From assembly GCA_963726195.1 (NCBI GenBank), contig CAVSBO010000017.1:47331-111330 (forward strand): DNA of 64,000 nucleotides. The letters run 5' to 3'. Position 1 is the stretch's first letter, and each line of letters begins with the position of its first letter. The notes under the pieces were generated by a model. The model was given only the letters and a program-made list of their open reading frames with translations. It was not told where the DNA came from and searched no databases. A program made the translations under genes and the position numbers. Shown here piece after piece: positions 35,284 through 40,797 of the stretch. This DNA comes from Candidatus Thorarchaeota archaeon (GTDB taxonomy: Archaea > Asgardarchaeota > Thorarchaeia > Thorarchaeales > Thorarchaeaceae).

Positions 35284-35595
35284 AGTTAAATAAGGGAAGC
35301 GTGTTAATTAATGATTGGATGCTACGAGAGAGCATTCATTGTCGGTGTAGCGCCTGGGCCTTTTGACGTAATGATGAGACAGAAGGATGCAAGCGGTCCG
35401 CGGTCATAATGTGGGACTGAGATTGCGCAGGGAATTGACATGAGCATATCGACGCCTTCCAAACAGTTCCATTCTATATGGGTTTACATAGGCATACGTT
35501 GCACAAATCCGGGTGTGCCTGAAAGACTCTGCACAGCTAATGAAAACCCAATTCCCTGAGCCGAGCGCCCTGAGATCTCAGGAGCCACAAGGAGG

Positions 35596-36880
35596 TTGCT
35601 CCAAGCGCTAAAGACCTATTCACTCAGCCATGACCAGGGCAAGGTACTCAACGGTCTAATGGCTGCCTACAACACCGTCCTCAACACCATGCTGCAGTGT
35701 ATCTGGCAGACGACGGAATGGAGGAAGCATCAGATCAAAGGCAAGAAGCAGCACAGGTTCTACCCAAAGTACAGGAAGGATAGTGTCTTCAAGCGGGCAG
35801 ATGAGAGACAAATGCCTCGAAGAGTGGTGCTATGCAGCTCACTGGGTCGACTCCGCCATGAAGACGGCCTTCAGCATCATGGCTTCGTGGAAAACGAACT
35901 ATGACAGGGGTGAGAGAAAAAGCGACTGCCCACATTCCCGGAGGCTCTTTTTGCGGGTCAAGCAGACCCTCCTCAAACTCGAGGGAGACACGCTCAGGAT
36001 CACCCTCAAGCCACGTGAGTTCGTCTATATCGACCTCTCGCGACGTTACTTCAAGCTGCCCGGCAGCGTGTCCTCAGTGGGCTTGGGTGAACCGGTCATC
36101 ACACCTGACAGAATACACCTGCCCATCCACGTGACTGAAGAAGAGAAGGAGAGAACTGCTGAGGCGATGGCGTGGGACTCGAACATGCTATCCATGGATG
36201 GCTACAGCCCTGAGACAGGCTGGGTGAAGATAGACACGAGGAAACTCGTGTCGGCGCACATATCGAGCTTCGAGAAGAGACGCAGCGTACAGGCAAGGGC
36301 ATCGAAGTGTAAGAGGATGAAGAGACTCCTCACAAAATACAGGAGAAGGGAAAGAAATCGTGCGAGGAAGCATCAAATTGAAATCGCTAGGGCAATCAGC
36401 GTGTTCTCGAACAGGAGCGGCTTCGAGGCACTGAGAAAGGAGAGGATGTATAGGCGCTCGAGACTGTGGAACCGCAGGTTAGCGAGAACGGACTGGCGGG
36501 GGATTATGAGAAGGGTTGCGGAAGGTGGTGCTGTTGAAGAGCTGTCTCCGCAGTTCACCTCGAAGAGGTGCTCCAGATGCGGGTGGATAGATAGAGACCT
36601 AAGAGGAGCGGTCTTCGAGTGTCGGAACTGCGGGCTAAGGATAGACAGGCAGCTCAATGCAGCGATCAACCTGTACCTGAAGATGGAGGGTGTTCCCCAT
36701 AAGAAGGAGCGGTGGGATGCAAACATTCTACCGACACTTCGCGTGGGTAGGTACGTCCTGACGGGGGCGGAGCGGAAGGGAACCGATGAACTCGTGAGGC
36801 TCCTAGATGATGCGGTGAAGCCCCAGATCTACGTGGAATACGATAGGTATGCTGACGCATACCTACCTACGCCTACATAG
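35596..36880 (+). mobile_element. tnpB: IS200/IS605-family TnpB, solitary (IS1341-like), ~427 aa after correcting a +1 frameshift at GGG 35795-35797; RuvC-III D to Q
   Basis: AMAWDSN (RuvC-I), GFEAL (RuvC-II), PQFTSKRCSRCG..FECRNCG Zn finger, IDRQLNAAINL; GGAGG SD; no tnpA nearby. Confidence 0.88.
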
Positions 36881-36890
36881 ATTGAAACCC
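36741..36890 (+). ncRNA. Putative omega-RNA scaffold overlapping the tnpB 3' end (boundaries uncertain)
   Basis: 36741-36753 pairs with 36860-36872 (13 bp with one G:U). Alternative perfect 9-bp hairpin 36844-36865. Position is typical for TnpB omega-RNAs. Confidence 0.55.
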
Positions 36891-36891
36891 C

Positions 36892-37271
36892 ATGAGGCAA
36901 CAGTATACGCAGCTGAAGAGACAGTTTCCCGACTGTCTGTTGATGTTTAGGATTGGAGGCTTCTTCGATCTGTTCAACGAAGATGCCAAGACCGCAAGCC
37001 AAGTACTTGACATCGTACTCACGGCTCGCGGCGAAGGTGTAGACAAGTGGCCTATGTGTGGAGTTCCCTATCATGCAGTAGAGGGGTACGTGGCGAAGCT
37101 GCTGTAAGCTGGCTACACTGTTGCGATCCCGGACTAGATGGAGGACCTTGCGAAGGCGAAGGGCTTAGTGAAGTGTGGCACTGTGCCGGTAGTCACTCCC
37201 GGCACCGCACTTGAACCCGACATGCTCCAAGAGACGTCAAACAACTACTTGGTGGCGCTTGACGAACACGA
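36892..37271 (+). pseudogene. Partial duplicate of the mutS 5' end with two in-frame stops
   Basis: Collinear with mutS 38210-38589; TAA 37105-37107 and TAG 37135-37137; 144-nt core with only 4 mismatches. Confidence 0.9.
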
Positions 37272-37799: not shown

Positions 37800-38191
37800 T
37801 TCGGGAACACCACAGCTGCTCCTTTGTCGTGATAGGACTGATGTTGCGCACACTACAGATACGGTCTGGCTTACAGTCTAGTCAGTTCGCCTCCTTCGTC
37901 CAGATGAGAGGCTATGCACGGACAAATCAACTGACCTAGTTGAGATACGCGGAACTTGTACCCTTGCCGCTGTCGTGATAGACCATCTTCGCTTGCAATC
38001 ATTTCGGTCTCAGATAGATGGCCGCTGCCCACAGTCTTGAGCGTTCGTTGCAGCCGAGCATGGAAACTGCGGTGCAGGTGCACAAGATCAATAATGCATG
38101 GACTACAGCAAAGGTATTTGTGCCAAGAAGGGCAGCCGAATCTCCCTAGCATACCCTTTGGGAATGTACCGAGGCTACATGGGGAATCGTC

Positions 38192-40797
38192 ATGAGTGTT
38201 TCTACTCCAATGAAGCAGCAGTACACACATCTCAAGAGGCAGTATCCTGACTGCTTGCTTCTATTTCGACTGGGAGACTTCTTCGAGCTGTTCAACGAAG
38301 ATGCCAAGACCGCAAGCCAAGTACTTGACATTGTACTCACGGCTCGCGGCGAAGGTGTAGACAAGTGGCCCATGTGTGGGGTTCCCTATCATGCAGTAGA
38401 GGGGTACGTGGCGAAGCTGCTGCAAGCGGGATATACAGTCGCAATGGCAGACCAAGTCGAGGATCCTGCGAAGGCCAAAGGACTCGTCAAGCGTGACATT
38501 GTACGAGTCTTGACACCCGGCACATTACTTGAGCCAGGGATGCTTCAGGAGACCTCAAACAATTACCTTGTGGCATTGGTCGAACATGAGAACATGGTCG
38601 GCATTGCCGCAGTTGACGTTTCAACCGGAGAGTTTCTAGCAGCTGAAATCGAGGGCTCGATGACCAGTGAGAAGGTAGTCAATGAGCTTGGACGGCTGGG
38701 ACCAGCTGAGCTCTTGATTCCCGACTCCGTTTCGAAAAGACCAGATGTGAAAGCGGTATTGGAAGATACAGGTGCCAAACTGACATTCAGGAATGATCTT
38801 GACTTCTTGTCGTCGTCGGCTGAAGAGCGGCTAAGAGAAAGATTCGGGGTTGCTACGCTTGAGGGATATGGTCTCTCCGGCAAGAGGGTAGCAATTGGGG
38901 CCGCTGGAGCTATCCTCGCATATCTGAACGAAGTTCACAAGAACAACGCGGTCACGCTTTCGGGAATCAGAACCTACACGTTAGACGAATACATGATCAT
39001 CGACAACATAACTGTGAGGAATCTAGAACTCATTAAGAATGCAAGAGACGGTACGACAAGGGGAACGCTCCTGAGTGTGCTTTCCAACACGGAGACATCA
39101 ATGGGCAAGAGAAAACTGAGGCACTGGATACTGCAGCCCCTTAGGAGCCAAGAACCCATAGAGATGAGACTCGACGCGGTAGAAGAACTTGCTCGCGGAG
39201 CTCTCACTCGCCAGACTCTGTCAGAGAGCCTTGGTCATCTGGGTGATCTTGAGAGAATAACTAGTAGAACGGTATTCGGGACTGCCAATGCGAGAGACCT
39301 TCTCGCGCTTAGAAATGCGCTAAGCAGAATTCCATCTGTGAAGAAAGCCCTGAGTGGCTGCAACTCAAGAATGCTGAAACAAGCGGCGGAATCTGTCGAC
39401 TCCTTGCCTGAACTTGCGGATACTCTGCAGAATGCACTGGTTGATGACCCACCCGTAAGCGTGCGAGAAGGAGGCATGATTCGAGAAGGCTACAGCCATG
39501 ACTTGGATCAGCTGAAGAAATCAATCTCGTCTGACAAGAAATGGATTGCTTCGCTTCAGGAAAGAGAGCGCAGACGTATTGGAATCAAGACTCTCAAAGT
39601 GGGCTACAACAAGATCTTTGGCTACTATATTGAGGTGAGCAGCAGCAATGCCAGTTCGGTGCCAAAGGACTACGAGAGGAAACAGACACTCGTTGGCGGC
39701 GAGAGATACATCACACCCGAACTAAAGGAGAAGGAATCATCCGTCCTCAGCTGGAGAGGACAAGATCAACGAGTTGGAATATGAACTCTATGAGGGACTG
39801 AGAAACAAAGTCAAAGATGTCATGGAAGTCTTACAGCGTGATGCTGACGCAATGGCGACGGTTGATGCTCTCTCCAGTCTTGCAGAGACAGCTGTCAAGA
39901 GAAGATATGTCAGGCCTAGAGTAAACAATGGAACGAGAATCGATATCGTTGATGGCCGCCACCCCGCCCTCGAGATGATTCTGGGTCCCAACGAGTTCGT
40001 TCCCAACAGTCTAGACATAGGCAATGGCGGCACCACTCTCCTCATTGTGACTGGTCCAAATATGGCCGGAAAGAGCACATACATGAGAACAAGCTGCCCT
40101 CATCGTGTTGATGGCGCAAATGGGATCATTCGTGCCAGCAAAGGAAGCCGAGATAGGACTCGTCGACAGGATATTCACGAGAGTGGGTGCATTTGATGAC
40201 CTTACTGCTAGACAAAGCACGTTCATGGTAGAGATGATCGAAACTGCAAACATACTGAACAATGCCACCGAGAGGAGTCTGGTTGTGCTTGACGAGATTG
40301 GCAGAGGAACCTCGACTTTCGATGGGATGGCACTTGCATGGGCAGTGGCAGAACGCATTGTGCAATTGAAGACTCGAACCCTCTTCGCCACGCACTTTCA
40401 TCAATTGACAGACATGTCAAGCCTATACCACGGCGTGAAGAACGTGCACACGTTGGCCAGAGAGTCGGGCGACACAATCATCTTTCTTCACAAGGTTGTA
40501 GATGGGGGTACAGACAAGAGTTACGGAGTTCACGTGGCGGCTTTGGCAGGTGTTCCGGAACCAGTTGTCAAGAGAGCGAGAGAGATTCTGGCTCGACTAG
40601 AACAGGAAAACGTTACGGGCTTGGGTGAGGCTTCTGCCACAAGTAGCGTGTCGCTTCAGACTTCTCTCGAACCGTTGATGGCCGACGATCCGCTGATAGA
40701 ACGTATCACCAACATGGACCTAGAAAGGACCACACCCATTGACGCCCTCCTCCAGCTCAAGGAGATGCAGGACGAGGCTAAGAAACGAAAGAGATAG
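38192..40797 (+). CDS. mutS: DNA mismatch repair protein MutS1; +1 frameshifts near 39750 and 40091
   Basis: TPMKQQY, FRLGDFFELF, MCGVPYH, TGPNMAGKSTYMR, STFMVEM, DEIGRGTST, ATHFH, SYGVHVA. Confidence 0.96.

Follow-up and report, generated by a model that had tools for sequence, protein, structure and literature searches.

What does a TnpB do when the third catalytic aspartate of its RuvC site has been replaced by glutamine? The question is raised by a tnpB gene in the stretch analysed here (the window: 64,000 nt of contig CAVSBO010000017.1 from a Candidatus Thorarchaeota archaeon, numbered from its first letter), and to our knowledge every characterised TnpB and Cas12 needs Asp at that position. 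A preliminary description of the locus had proposed a nuclease-dead RNA-guided protein with an intact RNA fold, either domesticated as an archaeal equivalent of the bacterial TldR repressors or drawn from a clade that uses a variant active site. The best overall explanation, which we regard as reasonably probable, is that the gene belongs to a mobile IS607-type derivative, that its Gln is shared across a clade and that the copy in the window is decaying. As a locus this is no more than a common insertion sequence in decay; what is of interest is the clade, not the copy in the window.

Glutamine at the third RuvC position

The Gln codon (CAG, 36650-36652) lies within the motif DRQLNAA (36644-36664) and is in frame with the open reading frame (ORF) at 35783-36880, as originally described (translation around the motif: RIDRQLNAAINLY). 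In a profile of 60 homologues this Gln aligned with the catalytic Asp in DRDENAAKNI of a solved Fanzor2/TnpB-like chain, and it therefore occupies the position of the RuvC-III catalytic Asp. The RuvC-I motif AWDSN, with its Asp at 36176-36178 in a D-x-N arrangement, and the complete CxxC...CxxC zinc finger (36569-36631) were likewise as first reported, and the RuvC-II Glu (GFEAL) is at 36425-36427. The Asp-Glu-Asp (DED) triad of the window TnpB is incomplete, with Asp and Glu present and Gln in the third position.

The window protein matches Pfam Cas12f1-like_TNB (E 3e-14), and profile searches reached E 1e-9 against solved chains of TnpB, Fanzor and Cas12f. NCBIfam guided_TnpB covers residues 10-359 at 56.9 bits, below its cut-off of 100, and Q-type proteins (those with Gln at this position) resemble TnpBs at scores below the NCBIfam TnpB cut-offs. 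An AlphaFold2 model of an intact paralogue (predicted local distance difference test score 76) matched structures of Cas12f and TnpB at E 1e-10 to 1e-12 and those of Fanzor as well, and the window protein is predicted to have a TnpB/Cas12f-type fold with WED, REC and RuvC parts. Fold, domain order and length (~410-430 aa) are like those of ISDra2 TnpB (PDB 8exa, 8h1j) and SisTnpB1 (PMC10640517), as is the overlap of the omega-RNA with the 3' end of the gene, but those two proteins belong to IS200/IS605 elements with a Y1 TnpA, have the full DED triad and are compromised in cleavage when the third Asp is mutated.

Gln at this position is not peculiar to the window. Among homologues of at least 55% identity the RuvC-III residue is Gln in 110 of 112 and His in the other 2, and the best 120 database matches together with the query (55-100% identity) read DRQ in 85 cases, NRQ in 30, DRH in 2 and DRD in 0. 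In an alignment of 112 full-length members (residues here and below are numbered as in the paralogues) D193 of RuvC-I was conserved at 98%, E276 of RuvC-II at 100% and Q352 of RuvC-III at 98%, and the zinc-finger cysteines C324, C327, C342 and C345 at 100%. The first Asp of DRQ was considered as a replacement ligand and ruled out, because 30 close homologues read NRQ.

We then extended the comparison by an exhaustive search of 50%-identity cluster representatives, which reaches relatives at ~30% identity and gave 51 full-length sequences. The RuvC-I Asp and Asn195 (window 36182-36184) were present in 51/51 of these and the RuvC-II Glu in 50/51, and the zinc finger was essentially invariant, while the third position was Q in 28, D in 12, H in 8 and N in 2. 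On a quick IQ-TREE maximum-likelihood tree with Shimodaira-Hasegawa-like approximate likelihood-ratio test (SH-aLRT) support, at least 10 changes are needed at the third RuvC position. One Q clade, supported at 98% SH-aLRT, contains 26 representatives (24 with Q, one with H and one nested D), and the tree holds a second, independent Q clade. The preliminary description correctly placed the Gln codon at least two substitutions from Asp, but a route in single steps exists from D (GAY) through H (CAY) to Q (CAR), and relatives of the intermediate His type were found.

A second position sets the Q-type proteins apart. Asp200 (motif SMDG, window 36197-36199) is present in 28/28 Q-type representatives, both independent Q clades included, but in only 4/12 D-type and 5/8 H-type representatives. 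Either Asp200 or Asn195 could belong to a remodelled active site. In the secondary-structure register of the model, Asp200 stands opposite Trp192 and not Asp193.

Between the paralogues in the window's genome, synonymous divergence (dS) is 0.27-0.48 and the ratio of nonsynonymous to synonymous divergence (dN/dS) 0.09-0.2 over the first 360 codons. The tnpB protein has therefore evolved under purifying selection. Judging from these alignments, Gln is the conserved, normal state of a large archaeal TnpB clade and elsewhere alternates with His, Asn and Asp; the hosts of the clade, as far as the recovered sequences indicate, are Asgard archaea, Marsarchaeota, Nitrososphaeria and Methanosuratincola. 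The homologue survey that the preliminary description had proposed thus returned a conserved Gln, low dN/dS among paralogues and, as described below, variable flanks of the kind left by a mobile element. It bears out the suggestion of a clade with a variant active site, in which the zinc finger does not vary, nor do the RuvC-I Asp and the RuvC-II Glu.

There are precedents for large branches such as the Q-type clade in which RuvC-III holds a conserved residue other than Asp. A survey of TnpBs describes six large branches in which RuvC-III is altered, some occurring in archaea alone, and its authors take conserved RuvC-III alterations to imply retained activity (Altae-Tran et al. 2023, PMC10691335). 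Like RIIIr-4, RIIIr-6 and the other rearranged branches, the Q-type clade combines a conserved non-Asp residue at RuvC-III with an otherwise kept site, and it is largely or only archaeal, as some of those branches are. In RIIIr-4, the one branch that the main text describes, the residue is His, the zinc finger is missing and the linked genes are MazE/RHH, whereas the proteins here have Gln, an intact zinc finger and an IS607 TnpA as partner (PMC10691335).

A parallel also exists outside TnpB. In E. coli RNase HI, activity is reduced but retained when D134 is replaced by Asn or His (PMC4032109), and by fold topology D134 would be equivalent to the RuvC-III residue. Both proteins have an RNase H fold with the last carboxylate on a C-terminal helix, and the residues found at the TnpB position are D, H, N and Q. 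RNase HI is nevertheless another enzyme with another substrate, and Gln is not among the active variants reported (PMC4032109).

The element and its site of insertion

Features of the locus are collected in Table 1. The window tnpB is split across two frames, with ORFs at 35596-35904 (102 aa) and 35783-36880; at the frameshift the window reads AAGCGGGCAG, whereas the other copies in an alignment of the window copy with four others read AAGCGGGAG. The preliminary description had treated 35596-36912 as one gene, but an extra C splits the ORF, the stop codon is at 36878-36880 and 36891-36912 is flanking DNA. We take the frameshift at 35798 as real: an assembly error is unlikely because the longest ORFs elsewhere in the window, up to 1975 aa, are uninterrupted. 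The nonsynonymous divergence (dN) of the window copy is slightly above that of its paralogues. The window copy is decaying: its tnpB carries one frameshift and two stems of its RNA are broken.

Table 1. Features at the tnpB locus (window positions; + is the strand as given)
Feature	Position	Strand	Evidence
Left part of decayed mutS 5' relic; start codon at 35441, ends in TAM-like ACGCC (35452-35456)	35430..35456	+	
Left end of element; remnants of a deleted IS607 tnpA (its 5' and 3' ends)	35457..35595	+	
N-terminal piece of tnpB, up to the frameshift	35596..35797	+	matches residues 1-67 of intact paralogues
Extra C that shifts the tnpB frame	35798	+	sole single-base gap in alignment of five copies
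Rest of tnpB	35799..36880	+	ORF calls, residue positions, predicted fold, profile alignment
Omega-RNA-like scaffold in the 3' end of tnpB, finishing in GAAACCC at the right end	36687..36890	+	
Putative guide position, first 20 nt of flank beyond the right end (mutS relic codons 6-12)	36891..36910	+	
Right part of decayed mutS 5' relic; MutS domain I, in-frame stops	36891..37270	+	Pfam MutS_I, E 2.7e-22

The element has sharp ends. The window's genome contains 31 TnpB-like matches to the window protein, among them three close, intact relatives (86-89% protein identity), one shredded copy and a second subfamily of four copies at 44-47% identity. Four close copies, the window's included, align over ~1.43 kb, outside which their flanks are unrelated. 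We also compared loci from public genomes of Thorarchaeota, Atabeyarchaeia, Marsarchaeota, Nitrososphaeria, Methanosuratincola and others. More than 30 loci, drawn from several phyla, share the right end, ...TAG-N4-GAAACCC, and past it their sequences are unrelated. The left-end block AACAGTTCC is conserved in paralogues and distant loci, and the left junction has the consensus GCC-N5-7-A(A/G)CAGTT(T/C)C. GCC is kept at 28 left junctions, with a weak preference for AC before it, and bases further upstream vary.

The copies of the second subfamily lie at C7:107727-108746, C16:139586-140608, C18:12727-13761 and C16:105746-106773 of the window's genome (G000; loci L006, L007, L008 and L010/L011, respectively). 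DRQFNASVNIY is read in L008 and L010/L011; two of the copies are broken, and one adjoins an IS607 tnpA relic.

The element/flank junction of the window was absent from 30/30 relatives searched, including three genomes of the same genus. The right end of the element was found in only one other of 18 genomes of the same family, but an Atabeyarchaeia genome from a different family contains it 14 times, with nucleotide identity reaching 90%; the element is therefore patchily distributed and horizontally spread. Elsewhere, copies within one genome are 80-93% identical in nucleotide sequence and most are intact (L022-L037 in the Atabeyarchaeia chromosome CP147779, L030-L053 in Marsarchaeota and L032-L054 in Nitrososphaeria).

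No tnpA is present within the window, as had been noted before, and no Y1 transposase was found in the window's genome (88.9% complete), an absence that led us to IS607. An intact IS607 TnpA gene lies directly upstream of an intact Q-type tnpB in L027 (Methanosuratincola) and L028, and the same tnpA is carried by L041, L042 and L053, in which tnpB either runs off the contig or has a frameshift. The upstream ORF of 200 aa encodes a MerR-type helix-turn-helix (HTH) and a resolvase domain (Pfam Resolvase, MerR) and scores 212.8 bits against NF033518 (IS607-family transposase; cut-off 110). Of tnpA, the left end of the window copy and its paralogues retains no more than remnants of the initial and final codons, and the single IS607 TnpA in the window's genome (43% identity) is on another contig. 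As relatives carry a full TnpA where the window copy has only relics, the window element is, on this comparison, a non-autonomous derivative of an IS607-family element that has lost tnpA by deletion. The upstream TnpA typical of the family is thus missing from the window copy and present in the full elements of relatives. A presumed core dinucleotide CC, a feature of IS607 ends and their scarless sites, is found at both junctions (35455-35456 and 36889-36890).

In these respects the elements resemble those of described IS607 TnpBs (Clostridium botulinum IStron CboTnpB, PMC10690162; ISFba1 TnpB, PDB 8iaz). Full elements have a TnpA with MerR-HTH and resolvase domains upstream, the putative omega-RNA scaffold stops at the right end so that the flank would supply the guide, and both junctions carry a core dinucleotide (CC here, GG in Cbo). 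The predicted structure also matches 8iaz, at E 6e-10. The Cbo IStron has TGGG as its transposon-adjacent motif (TAM) and TCGG as its scaffold end (PMC10690162), and in both systems the right end resembles the TAM except at position -3 (AACCC and ACGCC here, TCGG and TGGG in Cbo). The Q-type proteins differ in having Gln and not Asp at RuvC-III, D-x-N and not D-x-G at RuvC-I, a scaffold wholly within the ORF, 10 nt from the stop, and archaeal hosts.

The flanks of the window copy record the site into which it was inserted. Within the 24 nt before the left junction, 19/24 match the start region of the real mutS gene, and the right part of the relic is 82-86% identical to mutS (38207 onward), with a near-identical core of ~145 nt. 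Joined through one CC, the two flanks read ATG AGC ATA TCG ACG CCC ATG AGG..., or MSISTPMRQQ, equal in length and frame to the real mutS start, MSVSTPMKQQ. The rejoined frame sets the limits of the element (35457-36890) and places the guide position from 36891 onward. The element was inserted at a CC dinucleotide in codons 5-6 of the mutS 5' relic. A guide length of 20 nt is assumed by analogy with known TnpB systems, and conservation at the junctions together with the likeness to the Cbo IStron points to a TAM ending in ...(A)CGCC and a scaffold ending in AACCC. The guide was also considered as targeting the real mutS; this was rejected on 5/20 mismatches (3 of them in the first 10) and a TAM that reads ACTCC, not ACGCC.

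The mutS relic is itself a mosaic. The core of ~145 nt (36961-37104 against 38279-38422) is ~97% identical to the gene and both of its flanks are ~70-75% identical, which suggests gene conversion between relic and gene. The real mutS downstream lies in three overlapping frames (38150-39781, 39726-40193 and 40087-40794), although other long ORFs of the window are uninterrupted, and mismatch repair may be inactivated in the window's genome. At L004:2594-3607, the frame of an ArsA/Get3-like ATPase opens ~10 nt past the right end of a paralogue on the same strand, so that gene and guide position overlap there at the gene's 5' end, as they do in the window copy.

A predicted RNA scaffold in the 3' end of tnpB

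The predicted scaffold comprises six helices, five from RNAalifold on 34 loci and the terminal hairpin, which was added: 36687-97/36749-59, 36713-18/36725-30, 36765-68/36820-23, 36772-73/36812-13, 36779-84/36798-803 and 36844-52/36857-65. Across the 34 loci 94% of cells pair and 17/37 pairs are changed on both sides; none of 500 shuffles (0/500) reached any of five measures, and slid controls paired at 32-48%. The hairpin at 36844-36865, which the preliminary description had already drawn, covaries across the 34 loci. The clearest case is the stem 36779-84/36798-803, where each position shows four or five pair types and the enclosed 13-nt loop is invariant. A scaffold with a sharp boundary to the guide, as expected of a TnpB, is thus found in the family.

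The other pairing drawn earlier, of 36741-53 with 36860-72, did not hold up as the main fold: 85% of cells pair, but without convincing compensatory change, and it clashes with two covarying helices. It may be an alternative conformer. No Rfam family was matched by the scaffold, the sole match being a sub-threshold one to the C/D-box RNA sR2 (17 bits against a gathering threshold of 42, E 0.61), which we take as chance.

The window copy does not have the intact omega-RNA-like fold first ascribed to it. Its pairs 36697/36749 and 36782/36800 are broken, and its fold is predicted to be weaker than that of an intact paralogue, at −76.6 kcal/mol (z −3.2) where the paralogue has −92.5 kcal/mol (z −5.1).

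Protein and RNA constraints overlap in this stretch. Window positions 36785-36799 (GATGAACTCGTGAGG) encode the invariant peptide DELVR and form the loop and 3' arm of the best-covarying stem. In the DELVR region third-codon positions are conserved, and dS is two- to three-fold lower in the scaffold stretch; for these reasons the invariance of DELVR is probably at least partly a by-product of constraint on the RNA. If so, RNA structure on the same bases can largely hold a protein motif invariant.

Cleavage, binding or repression

How would such an element work? In intact members, the TnpB protein would bind its own omega-RNA, with ~20 nt of DNA directly past the right end serving as guide. The complex would recognise the emptied donor site, a TAM ending in GCC followed by the sequence of the flank, and cleave it with a variant site made up of Asp, Glu, Gln and the clade-specific Asn two residues past the RuvC-I Asp. 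The cut at the emptied site would then restore the element through recombination after its excision by TnpA. We think it fairly probable, from the pattern of conservation, that intact Q-type members still cleave or nick with this variant active site.

Several points weigh against cleavage for homing. Gln is a poorer metal ligand than Asp, and no biochemical data on any Q-type TnpB were found in the literature that could be searched. The TAM is deduced from conservation at the junctions alone. The copies are old and the window's genome has no cognate TnpA, so that current mobility and a role in homing are likewise read from sequence comparison; long-lived solo tnpB copies under purifying selection with no recent bursts are, on the same comparison, not sufficiently explained by the homing model alone. 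Mutation of the RuvC-III Asp (D335) strongly compromises cleavage by the archaeal SisTnpB1 (PMC10640517).

Alternatively, the whole Q-type clade might be nuclease-dead yet borne by transposons, with TnpB and omega-RNA only binding the TAM-flanked target. Through such binding the complex might act on the donor or empty site, marking or protecting it, or it might modulate the serine recombinase or repress transcription nearby; purifying selection would then act on binding, not on cutting. This is possible, if clearly less probable than cleavage. The canonical third carboxylate is missing from 110/112 close homologues, and the neighbouring Asp, which is also gone (NRQ) from 30 of the top matches, cannot substitute for it; mutation of the RuvC-III Asp cripples canonical TnpBs (PMC10640517; stated in PMC10705468); and old, diverged, intact copies in genomes without a cognate TnpA are hard to explain by homing alone. 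Nevertheless, neither the RuvC-I Asp nor the RuvC-II Glu varies even at very deep divergence, whereas TldRs and Cas12k lose several catalytic residues and often the C-terminal domain too (PMC10705468). The third position is moreover confined to Q, H, N and D, all of them polar and either metal-ligating or hydrogen-bonding, which is not a random set, and one reversion from Q to D is nested within the Q clade.

The strongest form of this alternative, in which a large TnpB clade of Asgard and TACK archaea, mobile and linked to IS607, is naturally unable to cut and is kept together with its omega-RNA by purifying selection, seems to us rather doubtful on the present comparisons. A milder version is a new catalytic arrangement, in which Asp, Glu and Gln may act with Asn195 and/or Asp200.

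Either outcome would matter, since the clade numbers hundreds of archaeal TnpBs in which two catalytic residues and the zinc finger are invariant and the third position is Gln, or else His or Asn. If Q-type TnpBs cut, the rules of RuvC catalysis are looser than assumed and the clade offers new compact archaeal nucleases. If they only bind, there is an entire IS607 lineage that the homing model leaves out, and active transposons contain naturally dead TnpBs. A clade truly unable to cut would imply that a transposon-borne TnpB acts otherwise, for example by RNA-guided binding that steers or restrains the serine recombinase.

Readings beyond cleavage and binding by a mobile element have, between them, very little probability left. 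One is that the window copy is a domesticated TldR-like repressor that is guided to the start of mutS and so adjusts mismatch repair, and we consider it most improbable. Its appeal is that the guide position falls on the start of the mutS relic, which resembles the real mutS start 1.3 kb downstream, and that bacterial TldRs offer a precedent; like them (Wiegand et al., PMC10705468), the window protein is TnpB-derived with an incomplete DED triad and a putative 3' guide RNA. TldRs are, however, defined by fewer than two of the three DED residues, often with loss of the zinc finger or RuvC C-terminus, and they have lost transposon ends and TnpA linkage, have fixed partners (fliC, oppF) and carry guides to host promoters (PMC10705468). 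Here 2/3 DED residues, the zinc finger and the C-terminus are kept, both ends of the element are conserved with a different flank in every copy, and the guide position is the flank of an insertion rather than a match to a host promoter. The resemblance of guide to mutS is explained by insertion of the element into a mutS relic. Against the real mutS the guide has 5 mismatches and the TAM the wrong base at -3; tnpB is frameshifted and two RNA stems are broken; and the junction is absent from the 30 relatives, three genomes of the same genus among them. The archaeal TldR equivalent envisaged in the preliminary description is therefore better seen as a bounded, multi-copy mobile element with IS607 linkage.

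Finally, the idea that Gln is a private inactivating mutation of a decaying pseudogene, which the preliminary description had held out as the contrary outcome, is right about the decay (the frameshift at 35798 and a dN slightly higher than in the paralogues) but is refuted on the Gln by the homologue survey and retains practically no probability, as the same residue is found in the intact paralogues, in the 45%-identical second subfamily of the window's genome and in hundreds of homologues from other phyla.

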